DNA of 64,000 bases from a virus (taxonomy: Duplodnaviria > Heunggongvirae > Uroviricota > Caudoviricetes). The position numbers were made by a program, and so were the translations under genes. Below are positions 3,414 through 63,402 of the stretch, one piece after another. The stretch lies in the IMG/VR virus record IMGVR_UViG_3300020152_000001, positions 44,766 to 108,765 of that record. One strand, written 5' to 3'. The notes under the pieces are model-generated. The model searched no databases and had not been told where the DNA came from. It worked only from the letters and a program-made list of their open reading frames with translations. How positions within the stretch are numbered: the stretch's first letter is position 1; each line of letters opens with the position of its first letter.

Positions 3414-3937
3414 GCGAACGGCGTTCCCTGCTTCTTCTTCGCAAGCAACAACGCACCGGCAAGCACGTCGTCAGGCAGCGTCCGGTATTCGATCGGCCGG
3501 CCGTCGCGTTCAGCGGCTTCGATCCCGTACTTCATCCCCCGAGAGATGCCGAGGTCCGTGTAGACGACGGTGGCGTCGGCGACACGTCCCCAGACCAGAC
3601 CTGCATCAATCCCCCACTGACGCTCGATCGGCTGGTCGTCGTCGAGAATGCCCGGTTGCGTGTAAAGCAAGTGGCTGGCGATCGGTGCGTCGCCGCGACT
3701 GAGGGCGTCGCGGATGCAGGCACGTGCATAGGAGACGTTCTCGGCGACTTGGCCGGCGAACGGGGACTCCAGGATCACGAGACGCATCTTGGCATCGAGG
3801 GGATCAAGTGCGTTCGCGACTTCGTCGAGAAGATCGGCGATGCGATCGGGCTTACCCTCTTGGACGGACTTGCGGGTGGAGATGTTGCGGCGGATGCTGG
3901 CGCGGACGCGGCAACGTTCGGCGAGTTCTTTCTTCAT
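3410..3937 (-). CDS. NDT/DUF4406-like Rossmann protein (possible internal start at 3787)
   Basis: Segment MRLVILESPFAG...SYARACIRDALSRGDAPIASHLLY resembles DUF4406/NDT-like folds. It is the second such gene in tandem. Confidence 0.4.
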   Translation of the reverse strand: MKKELAERCRVRASIRRNISTRKSVQEGKPDRIADLLDEVANALDPLDAKMRLVILESPFAGQVAENVSYARACIRDALSRGDAPIASHLLYTQPGILDDDQPIERQWGIDAGLVWGRVADATVVYTDLGISRGMKYGIEAAERDGRPIEYRTLPDDVLAGALLLAKKKQGTPFA

Positions 3938-4049
3938 TGCAGCGCCATCGCCGCAAGAGTGATCGAGCTGCCGGCAAAGACGACGATGGCGAAGACGCCA
4001 AGGTACATCTGCCGCCGGGCGCGGCGGACTTCAGCGAGCACGTGCGGCT

Positions 4050-5156
4050 TCATTGGAGCCCCTGCTCGCTAATGCGGCGGAGAATCCACTCACGTGCCTT
4101 CAACGCGATAGGTCCTGCGACCTCTTTCCATGTAAGACCGCTGGCCTCGCGTTCGGCTTCGGTCTCTTTTTCGACATCACGGCCGATCCAGCCGAGAAAG
4201 GGCCCGATCTTTTGCACCGTGGCGACGCCGTCCGGCCAAACGGCCTGCAGGCCTTGCTCAAGGCGGGCCTCATGCACGTGGGCGGTCGTGAATGCCTTAG
4301 CGTTTTCGCTGGCCTCTGCCTTCATGCGGGCTGGTTTCGCGGCGCCCTTCTCGCCGTGGGCGGCGCCTTTGACTTTGAAGAGCAGCGACTGCGAATGCAG
4401 GCGCAGGTTGGACACGTCTTCGATGCGGAAGGCGCGGCCCGGCGTCATCGGGATTTCGACGGACTGCGGATAGAAGACTAGGCCTTCCCCGACGCCGTCG
4501 ATACCGAATACGGATTTGATGTAGGGGTCGCTCTGGTCGATCTTCGCGACTTCGTCGTTGATCTCGCGGACGATCTCTTCACCGCGTTCGCGATCGTTGA
4601 AGTCGAGGCGGATCAGACTGCCTTCGTGCCACGGGATCACTTTGACGCGCGGATGGATGCCGTTCTCGTTCGTCAGCCAGCGCTCGATGGACTCGGGATT
4701 GACAATATGTCCGTCTGCGGTCTCGATCGAGAACACGAAGAAGGTCTTCTCGGGTATCTGCGAGACCGAGACCTTCTTCTGGATTCCGGGGCCAGCCCAT
4801 TCGCCGTGAACGACGACGTACTCGTTCGCCAGCGGCCGGAGTGATGACCAATAGTCGTTCGTCTCTTCGACGAACTTCGCGAAGCCGCAGTTATCGTCCT
4901 CCGGTGTGATGTCGTCGGTGCGCTTCTGCGCCACGACTTTGCCGTAGCTGTAGACGCGGACGCCGCCATTGGTGCCGTGAAGTTTGACCTTCGCGCGATA
5001 CCGGACGATTGGCCGGTTCGGGAAATCGAACATGCCGGCGATCTGCTTCCACACGTTCACGAAGCCGAGGATCGACGGGAATTTGTGGTGATGATCGGAG
5101 ACCGGCGGCCCACCCTCTTCCGCTTCTGCGTAAGTTAGACTGACATCAGATGGCAT
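4050..5156 (-). CDS. RNA ligase, Rnl2-like (nucleotidyltransferase motif I KLHGTN)
   Basis: KVKLHGTNGG matches the T4 Rnl2 motif I (KIHGTN). Start moved to the ATG MPSDVSL at 5156. The ORF-track extension to 5327 overlaps the upstream gene and is low complexity. Confidence 0.75.
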   Translation of the reverse strand: MPSDVSLTYAEAEEGGPPVSDHHHKFPSILGFVNVWKQIAGMFDFPNRPIVRYRAKVKLHGTNGGVRVYSYGKVVAQKRTDDITPEDDNCGFAKFVEETNDYWSSLRPLANEYVVVHGEWAGPGIQKKVSVSQIPEKTFFVFSIETADGHIVNPESIERWLTNENGIHPRVKVIPWHEGSLIRLDFNDRERGEEIVREINDEVAKIDQSDPYIKSVFGIDGVGEGLVFYPQSVEIPMTPGRAFRIEDVSNLRLHSQSLLFKVKGAAHGEKGAAKPARMKAEASENAKAFTTAHVHEARLEQGLQAVWPDGVATVQKIGPFLGWIGRDVEKETEAEREASGLTWKEVAGPIALKAREWILRRISEQGLQ

Positions 5157-5841
5157 AGGTAAGCCCTGCTTTCGGCAGATCGCGTGCCTCGGCCACGCCC
5201 ATGTGCTGGCGCAGCTCCGTGATAAATTGGTCGGCGGTCTGATCGAGGATTTCGCCTTCGATCCAACCGCTCTGATCGAAATAGGCGTGCATGACTTCCG
5301 GCCGCATGCCGCGATGCATGACCTCAAGCCACGCGAGAGCGCGGCTCAGCATCCGCCGGTGCGTGTGCTCGCCGAGATAATCGCGCCAATGGACCTTGCG
5401 ACGCGGCTCCACGCCCTCGTCGACGTAGAAGCCCCACCACGCCTGCTTCTGCATGCGCCAGACGGCGGTGACGATGACGCCGTCATCATCGAGTTCGTAG
5501 CGCTTCTTGTCCCAGATGTTCTCTGGCACTACGCGGGCGCGGCCGAGGATGCGATGCGCGTACTCTGGCCGGCGATAGTGGAAGCGAAAGCGCTTCACGA
5601 TGTTCAGAGTCGTTTTGCCGGTCTTCGGGTCGTAGACTTCCTCGAAGTAGTCGGTGAACGGGAACGTGATGAAGCCCCACGGGTGATCGTGGGGATGTCG
5701 GTCTTCGTCCTTCCGCCACATGACATGCAGGCGGAAGCGCCCGATGATGCAACGGGTCATGTACGGCGACTGATCGCCCTTCCCCGTAATCGTGTCGAAG
5801 AACGGGAGCTTGTTCAGCAACTGTGACAAATGCTTCGCCAT
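5146..5841 (-). CDS. hypothetical protein with His-rich motif (RHPHDHPW)
   Basis: 231-aa ORF. The start codon lies inside the recurrent motif (CGTAAGTgagacTGACATGG). Possible metal-binding HxHDH motif. Function unknown. Confidence 0.5.
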   Translation of the reverse strand: MAKHLSQLLNKLPFFDTITGKGDQSPYMTRCIIGRFRLHVMWRKDEDRHPHDHPWGFITFPFTDYFEEVYDPKTGKTTLNIVKRFRFHYRRPEYAHRILGRARVVPENIWDKKRYELDDDGVIVTAVWRMQKQAWWGFYVDEGVEPRRKVHWRDYLGEHTHRRMLSRALAWLEVMHRGMRPEVMHAYFDQSGWIEGEILDQTADQFITELRQHMGVAEARDLPKAGLTYAI

Positions 5842-5852
5842 GTCAGTCTCAC

Positions 5853-6320
5853 TTACGCCCTTAGATACAAAGCGACCTCGGCCTCCCGGCGTCGGATCAG
5901 TCCGTTTGATCGCACCTTCGCTCCCTTCTTCGTCACCCAGATGAAGCGCCGCAGCTGCGTCGGGACTTCAGTCAGACGCCCTTCTCGGATCAGCCTAAAG
6001 ACCACCCAACTCGGCGACGCTCCAGCGTTGAAAGCGAACGACACCAAAGCGCCGTACTGATTGTCGGTGAGGGACGCCAACCGATCGGCTGGCATGCACG
6101 CGGCCAGTCGCGTCTGCGCTTCTCGGAGGTCAAGCCGGAGAAGACGCTCCGCTTCCTCTTCGGTGATGGTCTTTTTGCCGACATCGTCCCCGCTTACGGT
6201 CTCCGTGTGACCGTAACCGATCGAAGGCACACCGGCCTCGCAGCGGTAGGCGACAAGCTCTAGGTTCTCGAAGCTCTTGATGAGATCGATTGCCGCTTGG
6301 TTGAGTTCACGAGTTGCCAT
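5853..6320 (-). CDS. endolysin, GH24 phage lysozyme
   Basis: AIDLIKSFENLELVAYRCEAGVPSIGYGHT is the T4/lambda-R-type lysozyme catalytic motif. Start at ATG MATREL (6320). Confidence 0.8.
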   Translation of the reverse strand: MATRELNQAAIDLIKSFENLELVAYRCEAGVPSIGYGHTETVSGDDVGKKTITEEEAERLLRLDLREAQTRLAACMPADRLASLTDNQYGALVSFAFNAGASPSWVVFRLIREGRLTEVPTQLRRFIWVTKKGAKVRSNGLIRRREAEVALYLRA

Positions 6321-6618
6321 AGGTGTTCTGTTCTCGGTGGTCTCGGTTTTGGTATTCCTCGTCTTCCGCTCGCACCTTCTCAATGAAGTCGAGGATGTCA
6401 GAGGATTTGAAGCGGGCGCAGACTTCGTAGCGGCCGGCAGCTTCTTTGACGTTCAGTATCTCACCATAAGGACCGCAGTTGCCGAGGAAACGCGCTCGCA
6501 ACCCACGGGGGCAAACTTTGCGAGGCAAAACCAGCAACACAAACTCGGCCGCGCGACAGCGAGCTTCGAGGTCTTCGACCTTCATCAGTCGACCTTCCCG
6601 CCGACGTGATGAAACCAT
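6307..6618 (-). CDS. hypothetical protein
   Basis: ORF in operon orientation. Overlaps a + strand ORF of similar size. Confidence 0.3.
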   Translation of the reverse strand: MVSSRRREGRLMKVEDLEARCRAAEFVLLVLPRKVCPRGLRARFLGNCGPYGEILNVKEAAGRYEVCARFKSSDILDFIEKVRAEDEEYQNRDHREQNTYGNS

Positions 6619-7307
6619 GCGCCGTAGCGATTGAGGTCGCTTTCTCGCGTGAACTGAAGCATCGCCGGCACGCGCAGATGCCGGCCGCTGCGATGGATGA
6701 TTTGCAGCTCGATAGGCTGTAGGTCATCTTTCTGAGGTTGAAACCATGGGGGCATCGCCACAAGTCGGCGGTCTCCGCGCTCCATCGCCCTCTTGGCTTC
6801 CTGGAGCCAGGCCTTCGGGGCCCGAAGCTCCGTGATAGCGCCTCTGGGATCACGAAGAAACGAAGGACGCTCTTCGCCGGTAGGCCGGCCTTCGAGCATC
6901 CGCATCATCCTCTTCATGCTGGAGATCGAGAACTTGGACGACTTCGACTCCCAGGCGCTAGTCGCCGTGATCTGCTTGGCCCATAGTTCTTCTCGCATTT
7001 TGTTCATGCGAATGTTGAACTCACGCCCCACCTCTAAGGTCTCGATGTCCAAGCTCACTTGCTTGATGTCGTAGACTCTCTTGACCTCGATGGATTTGGT
7101 CTCGACGGCGGAGACGGGAATTGACGCTCCCGGATACGCAACGCGAGGTGATATGGAAACGAGATCACGACGAAGAAGAGGAACTTCCCGCAGAACTTCC
7201 ACAAGAGAAGAAGAGGCCATGCAATTACGACGACTGCGAAAAAGTCGTCCCTTCTGAATGTGAGACCGCGACCAAGCGCGATATAGCAACCTACGAAAAC
7301 CCAACAC
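6585..7307 (-). CDS. hypothetical protein (start uncertain)
   Basis: 240-aa ORF. Internal Met candidates exist. Overlaps 7055..7375 in another frame. Confidence 0.4.
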   Translation of the reverse strand: MLGFRRLLYRAWSRSHIQKGRLFRSRRNCMASSSLVEVLREVPLLRRDLVSISPRVAYPGASIPVSAVETKSIEVKRVYDIKQVSLDIETLEVGREFNIRMNKMREELWAKQITATSAWESKSSKFSISSMKRMMRMLEGRPTGEERPSFLRDPRGAITELRAPKAWLQEAKRAMERGDRRLVAMPPWFQPQKDDLQPIELQIIHRSGRHLRVPAMLQFTRESDLNRYGAWFHHVGGKVD

Positions 7308-10364: not shown

Positions 10365-11887
10365 GCGGCGCGGCTCCGGGGTTCGTCGAGCTTCGGCGGC
10401 GCCGAAACTTCGATGAGTTCGGCCTTGGCGCGGGTCGCGGCCACGTACATGAGATTGATCTCCTGTCCGAGCTGCCATTGCTGGCGAGCGAACGGCGACG
10501 GCTGCCACGCGTCGCGGCCTAGCCAGAACACACGCTCCCACTCCCGCCCCTTCGAACGATGGATGGTTGCAAGCGTGAGCATGCCTTGAGCGGCAACGTC
10601 GTCGCCGAAGAGCTTCTCGATACGGTCGGCGAGAACTTCGATGTTCTCTCGGCCGTCGAAGGCCGAAGCGATTTCGAGCAAGCACTCGACTTGGTCTTCG
10701 AGGGCCTCGGTGTTGGCGTCGGGGTTTTTCGCCTTGGCCTTGGCGATTTCGCGGTCGCGCCACTCGACGACCTTGTCCGTCAGCGCGCCAACGGTCTTGA
10801 TGCGGTTCCACTTGCGGACGAGCTTGATGAGGCCCTGGCCGATGGCCTTGCCCTCGACCTTGCACGGAACGCCGTTGCGGATCAGCTTGTAAGCTAAGCT
10901 GACAAGCGGAGAGGTTTTGCGACACAGAATTGCGTCGGTGGGCAAGAAAGTTTGCTCAAGCATCTCGTCGTAGGAAATGGCCTCATACCGGCCCTCCGGG
11001 GCCGTATCTGCGGCGACGATATGCGACACCCACTGCTGGGCCACGGCGACAACGGCCTTCGGGCAGCGATAGGTAACCGTCAGCGGGAGTTCGACGGCGT
11101 TGAAGTCGCGCTTGATGCGCTCCAGCGAGTCGGCGTCGGCGCCAGTGAAGCCATAGATGGCTTGGGCGGGGTCGCCAACGGCGACGAAGCGGCCACCCGG
11201 AGCCACCATCTTCTTCACGAGCGCGCGGCGGGTCTCGTTGGTGTCTTGCGCTTCGTCGAGCAGGACGAAGTCGAATTGCAGCGGCTCCAGATTGAGCAAC
11301 AGCGGCAGGTAGCACATGTCGTCGAAGTCGATGACTTCGATGTTCGCATTCGAACGGGCCAGCGCCATGCGGGCGAAGCGGATGGCTTCGCGCTCAGCGT
11401 CGACGCCGCGACGAAACTCTTCCGGCAGCGCGAGAACGAGGTCGTGATGGTTGAAGATCGTGGACCACGACTCAAAGTCGTCGGCCGCGAGGACGCCGAT
11501 GCCGGCGTTCTTGCCGTGCGACACCAGACGGATGACCACGTCTTCATACCACTTCGGCACGCCCATGACGCGGACGATGTCGCGGACCTTGTTGCCCTCG
11601 ACCTTGATGTTCTTGTTGGCGCGGCGCAGGGCGCCGAAGCCGAACGAGTGAACGGTGCCGGCCTGAGCCGGGAGATTGAGATTGCGGAGCTTGGCGTCGA
11701 TCTCGACGGCGATGGGCTTGTTGTAGGCCACGATCGCGGCAGTCAGGCCAGCGGCCAGGACCTTGATCATTTCCAGCAGGGTCGTGGTTTTGCCAGCGCC
11801 CGCGACGGCGATGAGCACGGCGTTGCCGGTGCCCGTGCGGACCCACTCGATGGCGGTGGTCTGCTGGAGAGAAAGTTTCAGTGCCAC
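10361..11887 (-). CDS. UvrD/PcrA-like superfamily 1 DNA helicase
   Basis: AGAGKTTTL (Walker A), VLLDEAQD, TYRC, TIHRSKGREWE, MYVAATRAK. GTG start. Confidence 0.85.
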   Translation of the reverse strand: MALKLSLQQTTAIEWVRTGTGNAVLIAVAGAGKTTTLLEMIKVLAAGLTAAIVAYNKPIAVEIDAKLRNLNLPAQAGTVHSFGFGALRRANKNIKVEGNKVRDIVRVMGVPKWYEDVVIRLVSHGKNAGIGVLAADDFESWSTIFNHHDLVLALPEEFRRGVDAEREAIRFARMALARSNANIEVIDFDDMCYLPLLLNLEPLQFDFVLLDEAQDTNETRRALVKKMVAPGGRFVAVGDPAQAIYGFTGADADSLERIKRDFNAVELPLTVTYRCPKAVVAVAQQWVSHIVAADTAPEGRYEAISYDEMLEQTFLPTDAILCRKTSPLVSLAYKLIRNGVPCKVEGKAIGQGLIKLVRKWNRIKTVGALTDKVVEWRDREIAKAKAKNPDANTEALEDQVECLLEIASAFDGRENIEVLADRIEKLFGDDVAAQGMLTLATIHRSKGREWERVFWLGRDAWQPSPFARQQWQLGQEINLMYVAATRAKAELIEVSAPPKLDEPRSRAA

Positions 11888-11967
11888 AGTTCCCGTAGCT
11901 CCCGTTGTCTGCCCAGGGTGTTCCCTGTAACTGATGCTGACAAGCGTAAGCGAGACTTACGTCAAAG

Positions 11968-15843: not shown

Positions 15844-15887
15844 TGTCAGTCTTGCTTACACTGTTGGCCGAGGTCTGTCAACGAGAA

Positions 15888-20489: not shown

Positions 20490-20574
20490 CACGTCAGTTT
20501 CTCTTTCAGCGGGGTCGCGGACAATAACCGCGACCCCTCCGGATGTCAACTAAACTTACGGCCGGGGAGAAGGG

Positions 20575-21335: not shown

Positions 21336-21895
21336 GCGCTGACTCCAGCGTTGATGCCAAGCAAGTCGTCGAACACGTAGAAGACGTGCTCCGGCGGCAT
21401 GTTCTCGTCGACCTTGAGATACCAGTCGAAACCTTCGTCGATGTTCGGGCGCTCGAAATCGGCCCTCATCTTCTCGATGACGGCGTCGGGGATTTCTTTA
21501 CCAGGACGAGACTTCAGGCGGGTGGCGAGAACGTCGTCCTCCACCGACACCCAGATGCAGCCTACGTTGTAGAGCCGCCGGCTCACGCGGTTCGCGATCG
21601 AGGCCCGCTTCTTCGCCGTGAGGTTCGTCTGGTCCCAGATGATGACGCCATGGCCGAAGGCCATCGCCAACGCCATTTGCTCGTTGCAGTGCCGCCGGCC
21701 GGCGTCGGCGAATTGCGAGAAGGCTTCGGTGTAGGTCTTGCCGATCTTCGCGGCCTCGGCTTCGATGTAGTCGTCGGAGCTGATGACCGTGCAGGTGCTT
21801 CCCATCTCTCGAACGTAATTCGCCATGGCGTCGCGTAGCGTCGACTTGCCCGACGCCGGCAAGCCGACGAGAATGATGAGCGTGCGCTTCCTCAC
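21332..21895 (-). CDS. polynucleotide 5'-kinase-like P-loop kinase
   Basis: LIILVGLPASGKSTL...SSDDY closely parallels the T4 Pnk kinase N-terminus (GCPGSGKST...NRDDYR). GTG start overlaps the ligase stop (GTGA). Confidence 0.65.
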   Translation of the reverse strand: MRKRTLIILVGLPASGKSTLRDAMANYVREMGSTCTVISSDDYIEAEAAKIGKTYTEAFSQFADAGRRHCNEQMALAMAFGHGVIIWDQTNLTAKKRASIANRVSRRLYNVGCIWVSVEDDVLATRLKSRPGKEIPDAVIEKMRADFERPNIDEGFDWYLKVDENMPPEHVFYVFDDLLGINAGVSA

Positions 21896-23133
21896 GCGGC
21901 CTCCAGGAATTCTATGAACGACGGCGGGTTCAGGAGCAGCGACTTCGCGTGCTCCCAGTTCTTCGATGTCTGCGCGTGCTTACGCAGGTAATTTAGAATT
22001 GCGTCAGCGGTCGTGACTTTGCCGTCGAAGCACTTGAAAACCAGATGCCGGAGCTGCTGCCAGCGAGGATCAGAAGCAGCGTTCGCTTCCGATGCGATGG
22101 CGAATTCTTTGCGGCCGATCTCCTGAGCACGCAGAGTCTCAACATGGACCTTGGCGTTCAGGTGCTGAATCTCAGTGGCCAAACTCGCGATGTATTCTTC
22201 AACGCGAGCGCGATCTTCCGCAGCAAGAGCCGGCAGCAAGTCGTCGATCTTCTGGTCGAGGAAAAGGGCGGCGACGTTGTGCTCGCGGCCGATCAATTCC
22301 TTGGTCTTGTGCAGCTGCACATACCAGGAGGTCTTGAACTTCAGCATGTGGCCGTCGCGAAGCTGGAGTACGTAGCCCTCCACGCCCTCTGCTTCGTGCA
22401 AGGCCTCGCGGAAGAGTCGTTCGACGGGGACCGTTCCGACTACGGGAATGTCGTAGGAGCGCCCCCAGTTTTCGAGCTGGTCGCGGGGGATGTAGTGGCC
22501 GGTGTAATTCCACCGCGCCGCCAAGAGCACAAGCTGGTCCTCGGGATAGTCGAGGACGATGCGTTGGCGGCGGCTGCACCATTCGAAGATTGGCGTCACG
22601 CCAATGCGGGCGGCGTTTGTCGCAAATTCAACGTAGTTCGGACGCGACGCCACGAACTCTTCGACCGGCAGCGCGACATCAGTGACACCCATCTTCGTGC
22701 CCCAACGGATTCCGCCGGCCACGGGAATCGGCGTGATCATGGAGCCGTCGAGCTTGTCGGCGATCACATGGTCTTCTAACTGCACGAGTTCCAGGCCCGA
22801 GAGACCTTGGTCTTGCCTCTCGCCCTCGTTGAAGAACTTGTGAAAGCGTCGGGCGATGATCTCGCCCGTCGACGTGCGGAAGATGATCCCACGGCACTCT
22901 CGGAGAATCGCGGCGCCGTGATCGTAGTCATAGCGCCGGCCTTGGAATTCGGCATCGTTCGCGAGGACGACCTCGTTGAACACCGGCGGAAACGTCTCCG
23001 GCGTCTGGTAGACGTAATTGATGACGGTGTAGTCGCCTTCCTTCTCGACGACGACAAACTCGTCGCGCCCCTTAATGTGTGGGAGCACGTCGTTGATGCT
23101 TGTGATCGAGGGAAATGGGTAGCCGATCGTCAT
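21892..23133 (-). CDS. RNA ligase, Rnl1-like (motif I KLDGSM)
   Basis: VIADKLDGSM matches the T4 Rnl1 KEDGSL motif I. Start at ATG MTIGYPF (23133). The track extension to 23370 is Arg-rich low complexity. Confidence 0.75.
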   Translation of the reverse strand: MTIGYPFPSITSINDVLPHIKGRDEFVVVEKEGDYTVINYVYQTPETFPPVFNEVVLANDAEFQGRRYDYDHGAAILRECRGIIFRTSTGEIIARRFHKFFNEGERQDQGLSGLELVQLEDHVIADKLDGSMITPIPVAGGIRWGTKMGVTDVALPVEEFVASRPNYVEFATNAARIGVTPIFEWCSRRQRIVLDYPEDQLVLLAARWNYTGHYIPRDQLENWGRSYDIPVVGTVPVERLFREALHEAEGVEGYVLQLRDGHMLKFKTSWYVQLHKTKELIGREHNVAALFLDQKIDDLLPALAAEDRARVEEYIASLATEIQHLNAKVHVETLRAQEIGRKEFAIASEANAASDPRWQQLRHLVFKCFDGKVTTADAILNYLRKHAQTSKNWEHAKSLLLNPPSFIEFLEAA

Positions 23134-23336
23134 CAGTAAAACTGCTGGTAGAAGGAACAGATGGCGTTGTGATGCACGCCGTAGCGATTGATCACGGCGT
23201 CGAAGTCCGCCTTGACGAACGCCGGGGGTTCGCCATTGACGGCTCGAAGCTGGTTCTCGGCGACCATGCCGGAGACTTCCGCGTTCACGCACGCGGCCAT
23301 GCCCACGATATAGGCGGCGGACTGTTCTGGTGTCAT
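23133..23336 (-). CDS. hypothetical small protein (67 aa)
   Basis: Start at MTPEQSAAY. The upstream part of the track ORF is low complexity. Confidence 0.3.
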   Translation of the reverse strand: MTPEQSAAYIVGMAACVNAEVSGMVAENQLRAVNGEPPAFVKADFDAVINRYGVHHNAICSFYQQFY

Positions 23337-23432
23337 GCCAGCGGCACCAAGGCGCCGTTGCACGCGGCAACGATGACGACGATGACGGCTGCGAGAAGCC
23401 CGATGCCGGCGATGATGTTCGTCCGCATCAGA
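23337..23432 (-). CDS. putative 31-aa single-TM peptide
   Basis: MRTNIIAGIGLLAAVIVVIVAACNGALVPLA. Its start overlaps the stop of the phosphatase gene. Below the ORF-track size cutoff. Confidence 0.25.
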
Positions 23433-23949
23433 AGTCTCCGGGTTCGACTTGGCAGCACTTGAGCCCCCGGCGCCGCCACATGGCGACGACGCGGTCGCGA
23501 TCGTCGAAAACGATCTGCGGGTCCCAGCCATCGGCCAGAAGCTCGTCGAGCAGTTCTTCTTTAATGATGTCGTCGGCGCGGTAGTCTTTCGGCGCGCGAA
23601 TGTAGAGCGCATCGTAAGGCACGCCGGTTCGGGGCTCGCCGTCGAAGGCTTCCCATGTGGCCTCGTCGAGCCATTGCTTCGTCAGGTCGACAAACTCGCC
23701 GTCACGTCCCGAGCACAGGACCGTAGCCAGACCCACGGCGCGGGTGGCCAGGATCATGTTGAGGATGGGAGCGATCGGGGCGTCGGAGACACAGCCCTTG
23801 TGGAAGGCGAGGTAGTTCTTCGGCTTGACGGCGATGAACGGGCGACGATGGGAGAGATCGGCGATGGTGCCATCGATGTCGAAGATCGCGCACTTCCGGC
23901 GTGGGAGTGCGTTCACGTCCGACTGTGTAATGGTGCCAAAATCTACCAA
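23428..23949 (-). CDS. HAD-family phosphatase (Pnk 3'-phosphatase-like)
   Basis: AIFDIDGTIADLSHR is the HAD motif I DxDGT (compare T4 Pnk VIFDVDGTLA). Start moved to TTG at 23949 behind gaggggag, because the track start is the TTG inside a TTGACA box. Confidence 0.6.
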   Translation of the reverse strand: MVDFGTITQSDVNALPRRKCAIFDIDGTIADLSHRRPFIAVKPKNYLAFHKGCVSDAPIAPILNMILATRAVGLATVLCSGRDGEFVDLTKQWLDEATWEAFDGEPRTGVPYDALYIRAPKDYRADDIIKEELLDELLADGWDPQIVFDDRDRVVAMWRRRGLKCCQVEPGDF

Positions 23950-24014
23950 TGTGCTCCCCTCGTTAGTGTTCCTGTCGATCGTAAGCCATACTGACGCCCT
24001 TGTCAATCAAAATC

Positions 24015-25638: not shown

Positions 25639-25680
25639 ACTGTAAGTTAGGCTGACGCCGATGTCAATCAGGAAAGAGGG

Positions 25681-27018: not shown

Positions 27019-27046
27019 TTGACGGCGATGTCAGTCTCCCTTACAA
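27019..27046 (+). promoter_or_regulatory. putative rightward promoter (TTGACG-N16-TTACAA)
   Basis: Within the 117-bp divergent intergenic region upstream of the rIIA-like gene. Confidence 0.35.
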
Positions 27047-27088: not shown

Positions 27089-29290
27089 ATGAAGTCGGCA
27101 GTTCTGGAAAAGCGCGAAGTCGAGGTCGGTGGCGCCTCTGAGATCGGTGAATTCACGATCGCGGCCAACGCCAAGGCCTTCCGCATCCTCATCGACGGCC
27201 TGTATTCCGACAAGCCGCGCGCCATCGTCCGTGAACTCTGGTCGAACGCCTTCGACTCCCACATCGAGCACGGCTGTGCCGATCGCCCGTTCGAATGCCA
27301 CCTCCCGACGCAATGGGAGCCCTTCTTCAGCGTCCGGGACTTCGGAGTCTCGCTGTCGCACGAAGGCGTGATGAAGCTCTACACCCGCGTTTTCGAGTCC
27401 ACGAAGGAAGACACCAACAAAGCCGTGGGCAAGTTCGGCCTCGGCTCGAAGACGTTCTTCGCCTACACCGACTCCGCTAACGTCATCGCTCGCAAGGACG
27501 GCCGCAAGCGCACCTACAACGCCTTCATCGCCGAGAACGGCAAACCCATGATCGTGCTCTTCGCCGACGAAGAGTGTGACGAAGAACAGGGTCTGGAGGT
27601 CTCGTTCTCGGTCAAAGTCCAGGACATCGAGAATTTCAAGCGCGCCGCCCGTATGACGCTGCCGGGCTTCGATGTTCACCCCATCATGACTGGCGCCGAA
27701 GTCGTCGCCGAGAGCCTTCAGACCAACATTGAAGGCACCGGCTGGCGACTGGTCCGCCCGAACAACCTCGTCCGCACGGCCGTAGCCCGCCAGGGCTGCG
27801 TGATTTATCCGATCGATCGCGGCGCCATGGCAGACGAAGCCCTCAGCTACACGCAGCTGGAGCTTCTGAACTCGCCGCTGTTCATCGACTTCCCGATCGG
27901 CGATGTCGACATCACCCCGTCGCGCGAAACCCTCTCCTACGACGACGCGACGAAGAAGAATATCGCCAAGCGTCTGGTCGAGATCGAGAACGAAATCGTC
28001 GGCCGTGTCGAAGTCGCTATCTCCGGTGCGAAGACGCTTTGGGAAGCGCGCCGCGAGCTGAATTCTGTCCTCGGCGAATACTCGCTGCCGTCGACGATTC
28101 GCGACTTCATCAAAGGCAACGCCAAGTGGCGCGGCGAAACCGTCGAACGCTACATCAAGGTCAAGTCGCGACCGTTCGCCGCCCTCGCGCACATTCGCTC
28201 GTATGAACTCCGTCGCCGCAAGTCGGAAATTCGTTTCGACGCGAGAAGCGACATCAGCCTCACCGTCGACGACGGCTTGGTCATCGTTTTCCAGGACGTG
28301 AACAAGCGCGTTACCTACCAAAACGCACGCTTGCGCGAGTTCATCGACACCCTGCCCTACAACAGCGATCGTTCGGTTCTGTGGGTCAAGGTCGACTATA
28401 CGAAGACCGACTACAAGCGCCTGCTCGTCGATCTCGGCAAGCCGCCGGCTAATGTCATCTACAAACTCGAAGACATGCCGGAACCTTATATCAACCGCGT
28501 CGCCGGCCCGAAGATCAAGATCAAACGCCTCGACTATTCGTCGTGGACGGAAGCCAACCATCAGCCCGAAGACGGCGGCATCTATGTCGACTTGAAGAAG
28601 AACGACATCATCCGCAAGGTCAAACGGCCGATCGAGCAAGTGAAGTACGAAGACGGCCAACCCGTCACCGACCCCGCCACCGGCGACTGGGTGTATGAGA
28701 CCGTCGTCAAAGAAGTCGAGACGCATGTCGGCGTCTACGAACTCAAGAACTTCATCGAACTCCTAGTGGCCCAGGGCGTGATGAAGGACGGCGACCAAGT
28801 CCTTGGCATCACCGCGTCCTACAAAAACATACCGACCAAGCACGCCGGCTGGAAAAACTTCTTCGATCTCCTGGACGAAAGCGTCGACACCAACATCGAC
28901 CTCAACCTCTTGGCGTCGGTGAAGGCCTATGATCCCGTAAAGCGTACACGCGCTTGGAACATTGCCGAAGAAATGCTGGACGCCGGCCTGCAAGTCACCG
29001 ATGGCCCGGCAAAGAAGCTCATGGCCGAGATCGAGTTCTATCGCGAACTCGTTGCTTCGGATGACGTGAAAAAGGCGGAGGCCGCGTTCAAGGTTCTCCA
29101 AGCCGTCCGTCCGCAAGACGCGGAGCTGCCGGACGCTCCGGAACCTTGCGAAGCCGAAATCTCAGCCTTCGAAGACGCATACCCCATGGCCATGGCCTTG
29201 GTGGAGGCCTCGTATGGTTCGATCTCGTCGGCGCAGCTGTCGATGATCGTCGATTACGTAATTCTCGTTGACAAACGTCAGCAAGTGTGA
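27089..29290 (+). CDS. rIIA: rIIA-like GHKL (Hsp90-type) ATPase
   Basis: LYSDKPRAIVRELWSNAFDS and VGKFGLGSKTFFAYTD match the Hsp90/GHKL N and G1/G2 boxes. 733 aa, followed by a partner gene, as in T4 rIIA-rIIB. Confidence 0.55.
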   Translation: MKSAVLEKREVEVGGASEIGEFTIAANAKAFRILIDGLYSDKPRAIVRELWSNAFDSHIEHGCADRPFECHLPTQWEPFFSVRDFGVSLSHEGVMKLYTRVFESTKEDTNKAVGKFGLGSKTFFAYTDSANVIARKDGRKRTYNAFIAENGKPMIVLFADEECDEEQGLEVSFSVKVQDIENFKRAARMTLPGFDVHPIMTGAEVVAESLQTNIEGTGWRLVRPNNLVRTAVARQGCVIYPIDRGAMADEALSYTQLELLNSPLFIDFPIGDVDITPSRETLSYDDATKKNIAKRLVEIENEIVGRVEVAISGAKTLWEARRELNSVLGEYSLPSTIRDFIKGNAKWRGETVERYIKVKSRPFAALAHIRSYELRRRKSEIRFDARSDISLTVDDGLVIVFQDVNKRVTYQNARLREFIDTLPYNSDRSVLWVKVDYTKTDYKRLLVDLGKPPANVIYKLEDMPEPYINRVAGPKIKIKRLDYSSWTEANHQPEDGGIYVDLKKNDIIRKVKRPIEQVKYEDGQPVTDPATGDWVYETVVKEVETHVGVYELKNFIELLVAQGVMKDGDQVLGITASYKNIPTKHAGWKNFFDLLDESVDTNIDLNLLASVKAYDPVKRTRAWNIAEEMLDAGLQVTDGPAKKLMAEIEFYRELVASDDVKKAEAAFKVLQAVRPQDAELPDAPEPCEAEISAFEDAYPMAMALVEASYGSISSAQLSMIVDYVILVDKRQQV

Positions 29291-29347
29291 CATCTAGGCT
29301 CAACCCAGGGGCTTCGGCCCGCAGAAAACGGAGGCAATGCGGCTACA

Positions 29348-30772: not shown

Positions 30773-31282
30773 ATGCCCGTCAACAAGCTCAAGCTCGTGC
30801 CCGACTCCGACCCCGTGCTTCACCAGCCGGCGCCGGAAGTCGCGATTACGGGCTCGCAGCTTCGCGGTGGTAAGAGCTATCCAGACTTCGGCGCTGAAGT
30901 CATCGCCGAACTCAGCGACATGTACGACCTCATGAAGATGCAGCGTGCGATCGGAATCGCCGCGCCTCAGGTCGGACTGGCCAAGCGCATGTGCATCGTC
31001 GCCGTGGGTCACGACGTTCATTTCATGATCAACCCCAAGATCACGTTCTCGTCGGGGATCAAGCAGACGGCGCTAGAAGGCTGCCTCTCCTACCCCGGCC
31101 AACAAGCCAAGGTGTCGCGTTCACTCTCGCTCGTCGTCGAGTTCTACGATCGCTCTGGCATCTTCCACAAATTGCGAGCGCAGGGTTTGCTTGCCCGCTG
31201 CATCGCACACGAGGTCGACCACCTCGACGGCATCGTCATGCACGATCGCGTCAGCGTGGCTGACAAGCGTCAGGCAAGCTAA
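30773..31282 (+). CDS. def: peptide deformylase
   Basis: All three PDF motifs are present: GIAAPQVG, EGCLS, HEVDHLDG. Confidence 0.9.
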   Translation: MPVNKLKLVPDSDPVLHQPAPEVAITGSQLRGGKSYPDFGAEVIAELSDMYDLMKMQRAIGIAAPQVGLAKRMCIVAVGHDVHFMINPKITFSSGIKQTALEGCLSYPGQQAKVSRSLSLVVEFYDRSGIFHKLRAQGLLARCIAHEVDHLDGIVMHDRVSVADKRQAS

Positions 31283-37066: not shown

Positions 37067-38691
37067 TGTCCGCAGCGAGTCGCCTGGAGCTTAGCTACGC
37101 TCCCGACTCCGACTTTGAAATTGAAGCACCTCCGGGGAAAACCTACCTCCCCTATCAGCGCGCCGCCGTGGAGTACGCGCTGGGAATTCGTCACGTCCTC
37201 ATTGCCGACCCGCCGGGGTTGGGGAAGACGATCGAAGCCATCGCGATAATCAACACCGACGAAAGCATTCGTCGCGTCCTCATCGCCTGCCCTGCGTATC
37301 TCAAACAAAACTGGCACCGCGAACTCGATAAGTGGCTGGTGCCCGATCTCACGTTCGGCATCGCCGACGCAGAATACATCGAGCGAGAGCAAGTCGGCGT
37401 CTTCTCGAAAGGCAAGAACGCCGGGAAGCCGCGCTACCGCGTAAAGGCGAGGCACAAAGACTACTGGCCCGACACCGACATCGTCATCGTCAACTATGAA
37501 ATCCTGAAGCGCTTTCCCGAGAAGCTGCAGGAGATCGAGTGGGACCTGCTGATCACCGACGAAGGCCACTACATCTCCAACAAGAAGGCCGATCGTTCGA
37601 AGCATATCTGGGGCTTCAACCCCAAACGGCAGAAGGGGAAGCATCGCGAAGGCAAAGAGGTGAAGCCTCTGCGCTACCGGCGTTGGGTCGTGACGACGGG
37701 GACGCCGATCATGACGCACCCTATCGACTTGTGGCCGTTCTTGGAGCGCTTCGACCCGCAGGGACTCGGCCGCAACTACGTCTCCTACATCCGCAAATAC
37801 TGCGGCGCCGTCCGCAATGGATTCGGTTGGGAGATCGGCACCCCGAGCGACGCCGCTCTCGAAGAGCTGCAACAGCGGATGCGGGCGGTGTTCATGATCC
37901 GCCGCGACAAGCGCGAAGTCCTGAAAGACCTCCCCGACAAGACCCGCCAGATCATCCCCCTGCCCAAGGCCGGGCTCGCGGAACTAGCCGACGAAGAGCT
38001 GGACGCCGTCGAGACCGGCCTGAGGTTCTGGGAAGAGCGTCTGGGCATCAAGAAGCCCGAGAAGGAGGCATGGACCTGGGCGAACCTTGCGGAGGCCCTG
38101 GAGGCGAAGTTCGGTCACCTGGGCGGCCTCAGCTACGAGGACGCGGTCGAGCATCTGAAGCCCGACGAGAAGCCTGTATTCGAGGCCCTGAGCGTGGCCC
38201 GGCGCCGGCTGGCCCTGGCGAAGGTCCCCATGGTCGTCGAGCACGTCGGCGGCCTCATACAGGCTGGCGAGAAGGTCATTGTCTTCGCCGTCCACAAAGA
38301 AGTCTGCGAGGCCGTCGCCAAGGGCTTGGAGGCCTATCAGGCGCGGCCCGTCGTCATCACCGGCTCTACCCCCGCCAACCGCCGGCAGGGGCTTGTAGAC
38401 CGCTTCCAGGACGATGCCAGCTGCCGGGCGGCCGTGGGCAACATGCTGGCCATGGGGACGGGCTACACCATGACCGAGGCCCGGTTTGTGGTCTTCGCCG
38501 AACTCTCCTGGGTCCCGTCTGAGCTGGAGCAAGCCGAAGACCGGGCGTGGCGGCTGGGCCAGAAGAACGCCGTCGTCTCCCAACATCTCGTCGTCGAGGA
38601 CAGCCTCGAAGGTCACATGGCCGGGATCATCGTCGAGCGGATGGAGGTCATTTCCAAGGCCCTAGATCGCCGGCCCGTTAATTCTGCTTGA
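37063..38691 (+). CDS. SNF2-family helicase
   Basis: ADPPGLGKT, LITDEGHYISN (DEGH box), TGTP, and helicase-C motifs GNMLAMGTGYTMTEA...QAEDRAWRLGQ. Confidence 0.85.
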   Translation: MMSAASRLELSYAPDSDFEIEAPPGKTYLPYQRAAVEYALGIRHVLIADPPGLGKTIEAIAIINTDESIRRVLIACPAYLKQNWHRELDKWLVPDLTFGIADAEYIEREQVGVFSKGKNAGKPRYRVKARHKDYWPDTDIVIVNYEILKRFPEKLQEIEWDLLITDEGHYISNKKADRSKHIWGFNPKRQKGKHREGKEVKPLRYRRWVVTTGTPIMTHPIDLWPFLERFDPQGLGRNYVSYIRKYCGAVRNGFGWEIGTPSDAALEELQQRMRAVFMIRRDKREVLKDLPDKTRQIIPLPKAGLAELADEELDAVETGLRFWEERLGIKKPEKEAWTWANLAEALEAKFGHLGGLSYEDAVEHLKPDEKPVFEALSVARRRLALAKVPMVVEHVGGLIQAGEKVIVFAVHKEVCEAVAKGLEAYQARPVVITGSTPANRRQGLVDRFQDDASCRAAVGNMLAMGTGYTMTEARFVVFAELSWVPSELEQAEDRAWRLGQKNAVVSQHLVVEDSLEGHMAGIIVERMEVISKALDRRPVNSA

Positions 38692-38734
38692 CAAATGACG
38701 TAAGTTTGGCTTACCCTATGGGGAAGGAATAAGA

Positions 38735-39997: not shown

Positions 39998-40023
39998 CGA
40001 CGTAAGTCTAACTGACACGGTCT

Positions 40024-42102: not shown

Positions 42103-42161
42103 CGATGTTAATTTTCGCTTGACTTCTGCGTAAGTCTCGCTTACACCCGGAGAACACTGAC

Positions 42162-44832: not shown

Positions 44833-44929
44833 CGTAAGTCCGCCTGACACGGTGAGAAGAGAGAAGAGCAAAGGCCAGAAGTGCGTCCACCGACGTAAGT
44901 TTCACTAACCCCGAAAGGAAAGTCCCACC

Positions 44930-45664: not shown

Positions 45665-45679
45665 CGACTGAAGGACCAC

Positions 45680-45707: not shown

Positions 45708-45710
45708 GAG

Positions 45711-48586: not shown

Positions 48587-48595
48587 GAGGATGAA

Positions 48596-52689: not shown

Positions 52690-53014
52690 CGGCGCAGTTG
52701 CTTGCCTAATGACCGAAACGTAAGGCGCAGACGAAAAAAGTTCCATACTGGGGCGCCGCAAGCGTAAAGCCAAGGTTCCCAAGAGCACTGCTAACGGCCG
52801 ACATGGTTCCCATACTTCAACACCACCGTAGACCTAAAGGATAGGCACATTGAATACTTGGATGGAGTGAGTTTAAGAAAGGTTGCTCTCACTGTCTTCT
52901 GGGGTTACTGTGGTCAATGTAAGCTACGCTTCTAACATGATTTGTTGCGCCACGCGCGATTTTGCTGTAGTGACTTACTCGCGTGGTCGGAACTGACCGC
53001 AGAGGTAAGAGTTG

Positions 53015-53824
53015 ATGGCACGCAAGGCAAAAGGTGCTAAGCGCACAGTGAAAAGGAGACGCATCATGAAGACTGCTCCGGCGGCGCCGCCGCCACAGAC
53101 TCCGCCCCGGGCCGCTGCCGGTCCTCGTCTGGTTTCGGAGACCGGGGTTCTCGCACGTGAAAAGTCGACGGTGGGCTCTCGCCTACGCGAAGCCCGGGAG
53201 CGCGCAGAGATGACGCAAGCCGACGTAGCTGGAAAGCTGCCCTCCCCGAAGGGCGACGGCCGGACGATGTCTCGGGCGAACATCGCTCAGTACGAAAGCG
53301 ACGCCGTCGAGCCCCCGCTTCACACCGTCGAAGAGATCGCGAAGATTCTGAAGACGCCGGCCTCGTATCTGGCATTCGGCGTCGGCGGGCTTGGTCCCCT
53401 CGGCACCGGCCAGGACGCGATCGATGCCTTGCTCGCTGAGGTCCCCGAATTCACGTTCGGCGACGCTCCCGACGCCCGCGAACCCGTCACCGAATGGAAG
53501 CTGCCGAAGGACTGGCTGCGGGCTCAGCTCCGCGTCAGCAAGTTCGACGACCTCTTCATCTACCAGTGCCAATCGCAGAACATGGCGCCGCAATACGAGT
53601 TCGGCGACAAGCTCGTGGTCGACGGCAGCGACCGTAAGGGCAGCGGTGTCTATCTGCACTGGGACGGCACGGCGCCGGCGATCAACCGCATCACCGTGAT
53701 CCCCAAGGCCTCGGGCCCGATCGCGCGTGTGGCGTCGACGGACAATGTCACCGACCAATACGAGGTGCCGGTCTCTGACCTGCATATTCTCGGCCGCGTT
53801 CGCGGCGTCTGGAAAGCCTCGTAA
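53015..53824 (+). CDS. CI-like repressor (N-terminal XRE HTH plus C-terminal S24 LexA-like peptidase domain)
   Basis: HTH SRLREARERAEMTQADVAGKL...ANIAQYES. S24-like QSQNMAPQYEFGDKLVVD and ILGRVRGVWK. ATG at 53015 behind agaggtaagag. Confidence 0.65.
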   Translation: MARKAKGAKRTVKRRRIMKTAPAAPPPQTPPRAAAGPRLVSETGVLAREKSTVGSRLREARERAEMTQADVAGKLPSPKGDGRTMSRANIAQYESDAVEPPLHTVEEIAKILKTPASYLAFGVGGLGPLGTGQDAIDALLAEVPEFTFGDAPDAREPVTEWKLPKDWLRAQLRVSKFDDLFIYQCQSQNMAPQYEFGDKLVVDGSDRKGSGVYLHWDGTAPAINRITVIPKASGPIARVASTDNVTDQYEVPVSDLHILGRVRGVWKAS

Positions 53825-53826
53825 GT

Positions 53827-54024
53827 TCACGACGCCTCCTTCACCCAACGATCGATAAGAGCCACGACTCTGTCCTCTCTGACCCTGCGCCGTCGTCTAA
53901 CGACGGTGCAGGGCAGATCACCTCGATCGATGGCGTCGTTCACCCAATCCGCTGTGATGTCGACTAGCCCGCGCGATTGAAAAATCGCTGCGGCGTCTTC
54001 GGTTGTGATGAGCTTCGGCTCCAT
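53827..54024 (-). CDS. excisionase/AlpA-like small DNA-binding protein
   Basis: MEPKLITTEDAAAIFQSRGLVDI...LPCTVVRRRRRVREDRV resembles the Xis/AlpA HTH_17 type. Confidence 0.4.
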   Translation of the reverse strand: MEPKLITTEDAAAIFQSRGLVDITADWVNDAIDRGDLPCTVVRRRRRVREDRVVALIDRWVKEAS

Positions 54025-54208: not shown

Positions 54209-54285
54209 TGGCGCACCCGACAGGATTCGAACCTGTGACCTCTGCCTTCGGAGGGCAGCGCTCTATCCAGCTGAGCTATGGGTGC
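54209..54285 (-). tRNA. tRNA-Arg (anticodon CCG)
   Basis: Reverse complement GCACCCATAGCTCAGCTGGATAGAGCGCTGCCCTCCGAAGGCAGAGGTCACAGGTTCGAATCCTGTCGGGTGCGCCA folds as a cloverleaf. Anticodon loop CTCCGAA. T-loop GGTTCGAATCC. 3' CCA is encoded. Confidence 0.85.
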
Positions 54286-54355: not shown

Positions 54356-55516
54356 ATGGCATCCGTATATCCGGTGACGCTTAAGAACAAGGCCGGTGTC
54401 GAACGCACCGTCTATCGCGTCCAATACACAAACGCCAATGGCAAGCTGAAGCAGAAGCAGTTTCGCAACAAGCGTTTGGCTAACTCCTGGATCAGTGCCG
54501 GCGGCCACGTCGCCGTAGAGGCGGCACCGATCGAAGCCACGGGCTCCAAGTTCTCTGCCATCGCTAAAGCCTGGGTCTCCGCCTGCGAACGCGGCCTCCA
54601 CGGCGAAATGCCGCTCGAAGTCTCCGTCACCGAGGGCTATCGCTCCTATCTTAAGAACTGGATCAATCCCGAGATCGGAGACCTCGACATCGCCGATGTC
54701 GATCGCAACCGCTTCAGGGAATTCCGAGACTGGGTCTTAGAACAAGGCCTCGCGCGGGCGACCGCGAAGAAGATCGTTGGCATCGCCCGCAGCGTCATCA
54801 AGTACGCACTGGACACCGACCTCATCCCCGCCGACCCAACGACGGGAATCACCGTCAAGCTCGCTTCTGGGAGGCATAGGGACCGCTCGACAAAGCGGCT
54901 GCCGGTACATTCCAAGGCAGACATGAAGAAGCTGCTGGCGGTGTCGGCTGAACTCGCGAAGGCCGAGGACAAGCGGACCTCGATCGCCTGGGCTCGCTAT
55001 AGACCCATGCTTCTGCTCTTCGTCTACGCGGGCTTGCGGTCGTCGGAACTCCGGGGACTGCCGAGAGACATGTTCGATCACGCCGAGGGCTCCGTGGAAG
55101 TGAAGCAGCGCGCCGATCGCTACGGCGTCATTGGCCCGCCGAAGTCGACGGCCGGTTATCGCATCATCCGTCTCCCGCGTTGGGTCGCTGACGAAGTCGC
55201 GGAATACCTGAAGACGCACGACCACGAACTCGTCTTCCCTGCCCGACGCAGCGGCGAGCCGATGTCACGCGAGAACATCGAGCGGAGAATGTGGACGCCG
55301 TTGCAAAAGAAGGTCGGAGTGTCTGTGCTGGGTCTCCACTCGATCCGTCACTTCTTCGCGTCGAGGTTGATTGAGCTTGGCGCAAACTCTAAGCAGCTCC
55401 AAGAGCGCATGGGTCACCACAGCGAGAGCTTCACCAAAGACGTGTACGGGCATCTCTTCAAAGACGAAGAAAACATCCGTGCCGACCAGCAACTCGCCGA
55501 ACGGCTGACGCTCTAA
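54356..55516 (+). CDS. int: tyrosine integrase
   Basis: 386 aa. C-terminal HSIRHFFASRLIELG...GHHSESFTKDVYGHL gives the R-H-R-Y catalytic signature. Adjacent to the tRNA. Confidence 0.85.
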   Translation: MASVYPVTLKNKAGVERTVYRVQYTNANGKLKQKQFRNKRLANSWISAGGHVAVEAAPIEATGSKFSAIAKAWVSACERGLHGEMPLEVSVTEGYRSYLKNWINPEIGDLDIADVDRNRFREFRDWVLEQGLARATAKKIVGIARSVIKYALDTDLIPADPTTGITVKLASGRHRDRSTKRLPVHSKADMKKLLAVSAELAKAEDKRTSIAWARYRPMLLLFVYAGLRSSELRGLPRDMFDHAEGSVEVKQRADRYGVIGPPKSTAGYRIIRLPRWVADEVAEYLKTHDHELVFPARRSGEPMSRENIERRMWTPLQKKVGVSVLGLHSIRHFFASRLIELGANSKQLQERMGHHSESFTKDVYGHLFKDEENIRADQQLAERLTL

Positions 55517-63363: not shown

Positions 63364-63402
63364 TTCTGCTGGGCCTTACGTGATGTCAGTTTGGCTTACG
63401 CG

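Follow-up and report, generated by a model that had tools for sequence, protein, structure and literature searches.

An inverted 18-mer pair around a phage cupin gene as probable members of a dispersed family of 17-bp repressor operators

A 64,000-nt stretch of a Caudoviricetes virus (IMG/VR virus record IMGVR_UViG_3300020152_000001, positions 44,766 to 108,765; the whole stretch is called the window, and coordinates are those of the window) carries two near-identical sequences of 18 to 19 nt in inverted orientation on either side of a gene for a predicted cupin, next to the gene for a predicted Rnl2-type RNA ligase. Both arms fall into a family of 17-bp dyads that is under constraint and associated with promoters, in a phage with a lysogeny module. 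Judged from the sequence, both are probably members of a genome-wide operator family of a temperate phage, bound by a repressor.

The repeat search returned arms of 19 nt at 5128-5146 (GCGTAAGTTAGACTGACAT) and 5840-5858 (ATGTCAGTCTCACTTACGC), 693 nt apart and 95% complementary (18/19). The 18-mers at 5129-5146 (+) and 5840-5857 (-) match CGTAAGT-N5-TGACAT exactly, and with up to two mismatches this pattern occurred 13 times in the window, against 0.68 expected; the inverted repeat is therefore not a chance observation. The inverted pair bracketing gene 5146-5841, which an earlier sequence-only reading of this DNA had reported, was borne out (arms 18/19 complementary), and so were its layout of the open reading frames (ORFs), the 11-nt overlap of the cupin and ligase ORFs (5146-5156), and the KLHGTN and RHPHDHPW motifs in the translations. 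Absent from that reading were the pseudo-palindromic nature of the motif, some 20 further copies in the window and the lysogeny module. The features of the locus, with putative operators named as such, are as follows.

4050..5156, minus strand: predicted Rnl2-type RNA ligase, 368 aa, motif I KLHGTN with K58
5129..5145: putative operator copy 1, CGTAAGTTAGACTGACA, at the cupin/ligase junction right after the cupin TGA stop; promoter hexamers absent
5146..5841, minus strand: predicted cupin metalloprotein, 231 aa, RHPHDHPW, PHROG 4786
5841..5857: putative operator copy 2, minus strand CGTAAGTGAGACTGACA, at the lysozyme/cupin junction; promoter hexamers absent
5853..6320, minus strand: phage lysozyme / endolysin, neighbour upstream of the cupin gene

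The ligase, cupin and lysozyme genes all lie on the minus strand, the cupin ORF running from 5841 to 5146 and the ligase ORF from 5156 to 4050. Copy 1 (+) covers ligase codons 4-9. Copy 2 occupies the 11-nt spacer between the lysozyme and cupin genes and includes the TAA that ends the lysozyme gene and the A (5841) of the cupin start codon, ATG; its 18-mer or 19-nt arm extends to the T at 5840 and thus takes in the first two bases (AT) of that codon. Among 136 pairs of sites, 5129 and 5841 were the most alike (18/19; the next pair scored 17, followed by seven at 16). No close relatives of the locus were found in the phage GenBank collection, or in IMG/VR with the ligase or the cupin protein as query. 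A second assembly (L004) was 100% identical to the locus and uninformative as a comparison.

The element is a 17-bp pseudo-palindrome, YGTMAG-N5-CTKACR, with half-sites GTAAG or GTCAG, and in a position-weight scan many sites scored on both strands, one base offset. The consensus occurred 13 times exactly and 22 times with at most one mismatch, compared with 1.4 times in shuffled sequences. Spacing between the half-sites was fixed: 15 GTMAG...CTKAC pairs were found at N5 and none or one at each other spacing from 0 to 15 (expected, 0.16). Perfect palindromes were present at 11945, 31249 and 38699 (examples are CGTAAGTCTCGCTTACG and GTCAGCGTGGCTGAC), and at least 9 of the 13 exact copies were intergenic or at gene junctions. 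The A/C asymmetry of the sites, scored against the direction of transcription, was divided 8 vs 4 overall and 4 vs 2 among promoter-less sites. Given the dyad symmetry of the site and the mixed orientation of the family, the inverted orientation of 5129 and 5841 is incidental.

Some of the operators (5129/5841 and 11945/42129) shared a half-site that is extended, on just one side, to AGACTKAC, and the copies at 11945 and 42129 had a 16-mer in common in addition to a TTGACT -35 hexamer. The central spacer is therefore not wholly free in this phage. Counting perfect palindromes proved too insensitive as a motif finder owing to the A/C degeneracy. Several known host motifs (CtrA box, Pho box, sigma54 and the alphaproteobacterial LexA box), did not match a 6-5-6 inverted repeat. 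A reading of the 18-mer as a T7-like promoter or one for a phage RNA polymerase was rejected, since such a polymerase was not found among the large proteins and the motif is a dyad.

A stringent search for sigma70-like promoters (-35 with at least 5/6 matches, -10 of the form TAnnnT) returned eight in 64 kb. All eight overlapped an operator or an operator-like sequence, and in six of them this was a dyad with at most one mismatch. Two architectures were observed. In architecture (a), the right half of the operator is the -35 hexamer TTGACA (20544, 50319, 15876, 29257, 38677 and 48544); in architecture (b), the order is TTGACA-N4-operator, and the -10 hexamer TACNNT comes from the right half CTTACR (11945, 23980, 25641, 38699, 42129 and 27029). 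The promoter at 11943-11971 heads the minus-strand operon with lysozyme, cupin and ligase. Seven dyads were promoter-less (5129, 5841, 10888, 31249, 40001, 44833 and 63384), and all of these lie at gene junctions except 10888, which is within a helicase gene. No -35/-10 pair was found at 5129-5180 or 5857-5810 in a scan of 3800-6800, and manual inspection concurred. Two ways of reading hexamers into such sites were discarded: with the right half as a -35 at the top-scoring junction sites, there was no consistent -10 and start sites would land within the next gene, and with the left half TAAGTN as a -10, no -35 was present 17 nt upstream.

The half-sites were conserved in a relative. A 14-kb contig (L033; JGI 3300033074 Ga0364573_11167) encodes a CI-like protein 84% identical to that of the window, and its DNA is 77% identical to window 42994-52495. 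In the orthologous operators, changes were found at 2 of 60 half-site positions, compared with 7 of 25 in spacers and 41 of 200 in flanks (Fisher p = 0.002 for the spacers and 0.0005 for the flanks). Half-sites are thus constrained and spacers drift, which is the pattern expected of a protein-binding dyad. The fixed spacing, the promoter overlap and this conservation together support a regulatory-protein binding site, one of the possibilities that had been raised from the sequence earlier, as the probable nature of the 18-mers. The putative operators of the window are listed below.

10888..10904: promoter-less operator within the UvrD-like helicase gene
11945..11961: perfect palindrome operator (minus strand CGTAAGTCTCGCTTACG) within the promoter TTGACT-N17-TACGCT (11943-11971)
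15844-15860 and 15876-15892: tandem operators, the second giving the -35 TTGACA
20544..20560: operator, right half being the -35 of TTGACA-N17-TATTGT
23980..23996: operator between the -35 and -10 of TTGACA-N17-TACGAT
25641..25657: operator between the -35 and -10 of TTGACA-N17-TACAGT
27029..27045: operator in a divergent region, within TTGACG-N17-TACAAC, towards rIIA
29257..29292: operators in tandem, ahead of rIIB
31249..31265: promoter-less operator at the end of a gene, a perfect GTCAG/CTGAC palindrome
38677..38715: operators in tandem, accompanied by the promoter TTGACA-N18-TACCCT
40001..40017: promoter-less operator in the 26-nt spacer ahead of the DNA polymerase gene
42129..42145: operator that follows a TTGACT -35
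44833..44849: operator at a gene junction, without a promoter; half-sites kept in relative L033
48523..48560: tandem operators, half-sites kept in L033
50319..50335: operator with the same sequence in L033; it gives the -35 of the promoter that precedes the ribonucleotide reductase gene
63384..63400: promoter-less junction operator ahead of a 2153-aa tail gene

At 20495-20540 (-), a 10-bp GC-rich hairpin, GGGGTCGCGG-TTATTGT-CCGCGACCCC, was observed between the -35 contained in the 20544 operator and a downstream GTG start; the predicted -10, TATTGT, sits in the loop of this hairpin.

The core of the dyad was found beside CI-like genes elsewhere. A scan of IMG/VR with architecture (b) returned 24 loci, and 5 of these 24, on unrelated contigs (L008, L015, L016, L018 and L020), had two to three copies each of GTAAG-N5-CTTAC. 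In all five contigs, at least one copy lay in or beside the intergenic region between divergent genes for a Cro/YdaS-like protein and a CI-like HTH_3 protein.

As predicted from its genes, the window belongs to a large temperate phage (132.7 kb). Its lysogeny module comprises the following features.

53012..53824, plus strand: putative CI-like repressor, HTH_31/HTH_3 (HTH_31, 4.6e-9) with a weak Peptidase_S24-like C-terminus
53827..54024, minus strand: excisionase-like small ORF, weak HTH_17 match (3.7e-4)
54209..54285, minus strand: tRNA-Arg (CCG), adjoining the integrase gene
54356..55516, plus strand: tyrosine integrase (8e-19)
55569-55883: HTH_3 protein of 104 aa, the second helix-turn-helix (HTH) gene of the module

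The full-length tRNA-Arg beside the integrase gene likely marks the attP region. The excisionase-like ORF is preceded by a promoter (TTGACG-N17-TACGCT, 54031-54059) that overlaps a degenerate operator starting at 54033. The module (53012-55883) lies amid an otherwise "lytic"-looking phage: the window also encodes rIIA/rIIB, DNA polymerase I, ribonucleotide reductase, primase, helicases, an Rnl1-type ligase beside the Rnl2-type one, and tail genes. In an Rfam scan the tRNA was the sole match, and the inverted arms had no Rfam family.

We infer that the best candidate for the protein that binds the dyads is the CI-like protein 53012-53824. Its HTH domain matched a profile of the CI-like proteins from the five palindrome-bearing contigs (hhalign probability 95%, E 2.7e-8), and the 104-aa HTH protein had no match to the Cro profile and lies next to palindromes of its own; the dyad is assigned to the CI-like protein for these reasons. 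A YdaS/Cro-like protein was not found in the window (best tblastn E 0.28; hhalign probability 13%), and the CI-like protein had no prophage relatives in reference genomes. Two perfect 12-bp palindromes (GTCATATATGAC) at 55520-55531 and 55562-55573, 42 bp apart, come after the integrase stop, at the start of the 104-aa HTH_3 gene. The window has no other copies (0.03 expected), and these two are probably the operators of the 104-aa protein itself.

Under the proposed mechanism, a dimeric HTH repressor, likeliest the CI-like protein, would bind the dyads and shut the operator-overlapped sigma70-type promoters in the lysogen, including the one at 11943-11971. The copies at 5129 and 5841, which are inside the long minus-strand operon, would be auxiliary or roadblock ("stoperator-like") sites. 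They might keep residual transcription from running on into the cupin and Rnl2 genes or, alternatively, steady repressor occupancy via cooperative binding. By analogy with known phages, we propose only tentatively that the promoter-less junction copies act as roadblocks or as cooperative auxiliary sites. Also tentative is the proposal that these copies (5129, 5841, 40001, 44833, 63384 and others) are repressor-dependent transcription roadblocks that may provide genome-wide silencing of the stoperator type. Such a system would use symmetric dyads and a dimeric CI/LexA-type repressor, in either orientation, in a large temperate phage with a likely alphaproteobacterial host.

Several points weigh against the repressor-operator reading. 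The dyad scan covered the 64-kb window, that is, only part of the 132.7-kb genome. The assignment of the binder is indirect, and the Peptidase_S24 match of the CI-like protein was under the Pfam threshold (17 vs 23.3 bits). Upstream of the CI-like gene itself a strong operator was not found, and only sites with two mismatches were present (52918 and 54033). The roadblock role is an analogy, and its precedent in phage L5 has asymmetric, orientation-dependent sites. Finally, the likeness of 5129 and 5841 to each other slightly exceeds what two independent near-consensus sites would need.

The first alternative is that the dyad is bound by a regulator of the lytic cycle, either Cro-like or a protein of the early-to-middle switch, whose gene might lie outside the window; the sites would then time gene expression during infection and not silence a prophage. 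We consider this rather improbable. Among the genes next to the palindromes of the five comparison loci, the Cro/YdaS-like gene and not the CI-like gene was conserved best, and both the promoter of the CI-like gene, without a strong operator, and the half of the genome outside the window would leave room for such a regulator; however, no YdaS-like Cro was found in the window, and the sole other HTH gene has its private palindromes. Because CI and Cro proteins normally share operators, this alternative largely overlaps the repressor reading. A role at the level of RNA is much less probable. In the minus-strand mRNA the arms pair over 18/19 nt and enclose the cupin ORF, and the resulting duplex would hide the start codon of the cupin and the stretch immediately after that of the ligase, with translational coupling or an RNase III site as the outcome; in the coupling variant, ribosomes terminating on the lysozyme and cupin ORFs would open the duplex. 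The computed duplex energy (-26.7 kcal/mol), the pairing of the arms in the minimum-free-energy fold of the 766-nt segment, the high likeness of the two sites among the 136 pairs, and the position of the arms (the 5' arm holds stop and start codons and the 3' arm abuts a stop) speak for this explanation. Yet any 18/19 complementary pair folds in this way in silico, the family behaves as a DNA dyad, the other junction sites are without an inverted partner, the loop of 693 nt is translated, no Rfam family was matched, and the arms are absent from a syntenic contig, L005.

That contig (ENA ERZ27279440 k141_33558) was examined over 21 kb of its 84.9 kb; it is syntenic with window positions ~1-16 kb, at 41-62% protein identity. 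Its gene order is a cupin homologue (47% identity), two small ORFs and the ligase (56% identity). The 21 kb contained zero copies of the dyad, and promoters were plain CTTGAC-N17. Because the L005 cupin lies beside the ligase without the repeats, the cupin gene is vertically inherited, and the earlier suggestion of a small cassette is refuted on the very condition that had been set for it. The cassette explanation, in which the repeats are the ends of a mobile or recombining cupin unit (a terminal-inverted-repeat element, or a shuffling module of which T4 PeSL is the model), is the least credible of those considered. An inverted 19-nt pair does bracket exactly one gene, and the C-terminal 70 aa of the cupin and the N-terminal extension of the ligase are both unique to this phage, which points to a remodelled junction. 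Against these, more than 20 other copies were found, not one of them bracketing a gene like this; target-site duplication and flanking direct repeats are both absent, similarity ends with the 19-nt arms, and other cupin homologues, in early regions, likewise lack the repeats. Scarcely more credible is the idea that copy 1 is an antisense promoter, the cupin gene being transcribed convergently from both 18-mers and an antisense RNA controlling the cupin or the ligase. The strict search for the 18-mer gave 13 copies, all of which followed the local gene direction except 5129, and CTGACA, the right half, agrees with a -35 hexamer at 5/6 positions. However, a -10 was absent 16-18 nt downstream of either copy, a start ~30 nt past the -35 would fall within the next gene at 5841 and 40001, and the orientation of the sites is mixed once they are scored as dyads (8 vs 4, and 4 vs 2 without promoters). 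Convergent transcription or an antisense RNA, also raised earlier, is thus unsupported: neither copy has a -35/-10 pair, and the plus-strand ORF 5203-5826 is without the coding-type GC content at third codon positions (GC3).

As a separate observation, L033 shares the repressor and the operators, and L005 is syntenic over the replication/accessory arm without the dyad; jointly, the two contigs could date the origin of the operator network.

The finding resolves into known kinds of parts. The putative operators resemble the CI/Cro operators of lambdoid immunity regions in being 17-bp dyads with ~11 bp between half-site centres that overlap the -35 or the spacer and -10, in that the genome which carries them also encodes a predicted HTH_3-family repressor whose C-terminus is S24-like, and in the core GTAAG-N5-CTTAC, which is identical in the CI/Cro intergenic regions of the five viral contigs. 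They differ from such immunity regions in their number and dispersal (~20 or more sites over at least 60 kb), in that several are promoter-less, and in the lack of a strong cluster beside the repressor gene. Dispersal of this kind is known from phage P1, whose C1 repressor has 22 operators over the genome (PMC8546580); here, too, a large temperate phage has some 20 scattered operators, and one repressor is proposed for many operons. The operators of P1 are 17-mers without symmetry (ATTGCTCTAATAAATTT), and C1 has no relationship to proteins of the CI/LexA type (PMC8546580), whereas the present sites are dyads and the candidate is an HTH_3 protein. Mycobacteriophage L5 (Cluster A) has, besides repressor operators, intergenic stoperators (PMC9283540). 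The present phage is similar in that its sites number more than 20 and fall partly within promoters and partly within very short intergenic spacers near stop and start codons (5129, 5841, 40001, 44833 and 63384). The L5 sites are 13-mers without symmetry to which a monomer binds, and they function in only one orientation relative to transcription (PMC9283540); those described here are symmetric and of mixed orientation, and the block of elongation is a proposal. If junction sites did block elongation, "stoperator" silencing would not be peculiar to Cluster A mycobacteriophages, and an ordinary dimeric CI-type repressor would suffice for it. The analysis also provides a regulatory map for an uncultured 133-kb temperate phage, with an operator consensus, ~20 sites, two promoter-operator architectures and a candidate repressor, and it removes a false lead: no cassette, antisense promoter or nucleic-acid enzyme is predicted beside the ligase.

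Gene 4050-5156 encodes an Rnl2-type RNA ligase as judged by motifs and modelled fold, in agreement with its earlier naming. It matched PF09414 (5.8e-11) and, over its full length, phrog_548 (5e-39). Residues K58, G61 and N63 of motif I, which aligns to KIHGTN of T4 Rnl2, were invariant in 53 homologues, and the same was true of motifs III, IIIa, IV and V: G118-E119 (HGEW), F142 (FFVFS), G223-E224-G225 (GEGLV) and K261/K263 (FKVKG). The top PDB sequence match was T4 Rnl2. In the AlphaFold2 (AF2) model (pLDDT 90.7), helices 286-364 form the Rnl2-specific all-helical C-terminal domain, and the top Foldseek match was full-length T4 Rnl2 (2hvq, E 5.3e-12, 380 columns); Rnl3, REL1 and Rnl5 ranked lower, and Rnl1 was at rank 44. 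The predicted activity is that of an Rnl2-family nick-sealing enzyme, which would act on 3'-OH/5'-PO4 nicks in duplex RNA. The protein thus resembles T4 Rnl2 (gp24.1; PDB 2HVQ) in its motifs and helical C-terminal domain, and the two phages also have in common an Rnl1 and a PNKP phosphatase-domain protein. It differs in its low identity (~20%), in a disordered N-terminal extension, and in belonging to a temperate, alphaproteobacterial-type phage and not to a T4-like myovirus. The homologues were 323-354 aa long and covered ~92% of the query; the extension of ~14-20 aa was absent from them, its first 13 residues were disordered in the model, and GC3 was 0.48 in the first 25 codons compared with ~0.8 elsewhere in the gene. 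Copy 1 of the operator therefore lies in a lineage-specific, poorly coding-like extension of the ligase.

The His-motif protein is predicted to be a 3-His cupin metalloprotein. It matched PHROG 4786 ("cysteine dioxygenase"; 1.6e-21), and H51, D52, H53, P54, W55, E67 and H96 were invariant in 33 family sequences. The cupin metal-ligand pattern H-x-H...H (H51, H53 and H96) is conserved at the level of sequence. The beta core of the AF2 model (14-151) had pLDDT mostly >90, and the top PDB fold matches were all cupins (HppE, 3-hydroxyanthranilate dioxygenase, ergothioneine dioxygenase and 3-mercaptopropionate dioxygenase), although generic ones with TM-scores of 0.3-0.6. The folds guessed at earlier (HNH, metallo-hydrolase or 2H) gave way to a cupin in structure prediction. 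Likeness to the 3-His cupin thiol dioxygenases (CDO, ADO/PCO and 3-mercaptopropionate dioxygenase) lies in the cupin fold, the H-x-H with a distal His, the HDHP motif and the PHROG label; the HDHP motif presumably resembles that of ADO. Unlike these enzymes, the protein and the other family members had no Pfam match (33 sequences, CDO_I and PCO_ADO included), there was no PDB sequence match with either the single protein or the family profile, and the fold matches are generic.

The C-terminal ~70 aa of the cupin (5146-5365, -) formed helices in a low-confidence part of the model and had no counterpart in any of the 32 homologues or in the L005 orthologue; their GC3 (0.74) was of the coding type. 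A fusion origin for this extension was rejected, the two small ORFs at that place in L005 showing no similarity to it. Linkage of cupin and ligase beyond this lineage was not observed: other cupin homologues, in phage early regions, had no ligase nearby, and the Rnl2 gene of phage RcXuper had no cupin neighbour. Cupin and ligase are, on comparison of the sequences, vertically inherited accessory genes.

The other ligase, which had been counted as the first of two, and its neighbour were mapped as follows.

21892..23370, minus strand: predicted Rnl1-type RNA ligase (PF09511), 492 aa, with ~110 extra N-terminal residues without family match
23428..24006, minus strand: predicted PNKP HAD phosphatase-domain protein, directly upstream of the Rnl1 gene

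No kinase domain was identified in this gene pair. By their predicted products, the Rnl2, Rnl1 and PNKP-phosphatase genes are a T4-like RNA-repair set, which bears on how prophages might counter tRNA-cleaving host defences. The statement that two such ligases are uncommon outside T4-like phages was too strong: Rnl1-like and Rnl2-like ligases occur together in six related phages (DSS3P8, vB_RpoS-V10, RpAliso, MD18, DSS3_MAL1 and RcXuper) of ~147-150 kb with Roseobacter-group and Rhodobacter hosts. The present phage is, at gene level, a temperate relative of the large roseophages, for which, to our knowledge, records give no lifestyle. Several bacterial members of the Rnl2-like family (P0111, P0112, P0118, P0127, P0128, P0147 and P0150) were fused to a tRNA-binding EMAP/Myf-like domain (PF01588), and these fusions hint at tRNA as a possible substrate for the family.

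A second tyrosine recombinase, a 209-aa Phage_integrase-family protein (24015-24644, -; 4.5e-20), has its gene well away from the main integrase, with the PNKP-phosphatase gene on one side and early genes on the other. Host-like accessory genes were also present in the window: a homologue of SspB, the ClpXP adaptor (15888-16325, -), a peptide deformylase (30773-31282, +) and an SPFH/Band-7 protein (31304-32722, +).

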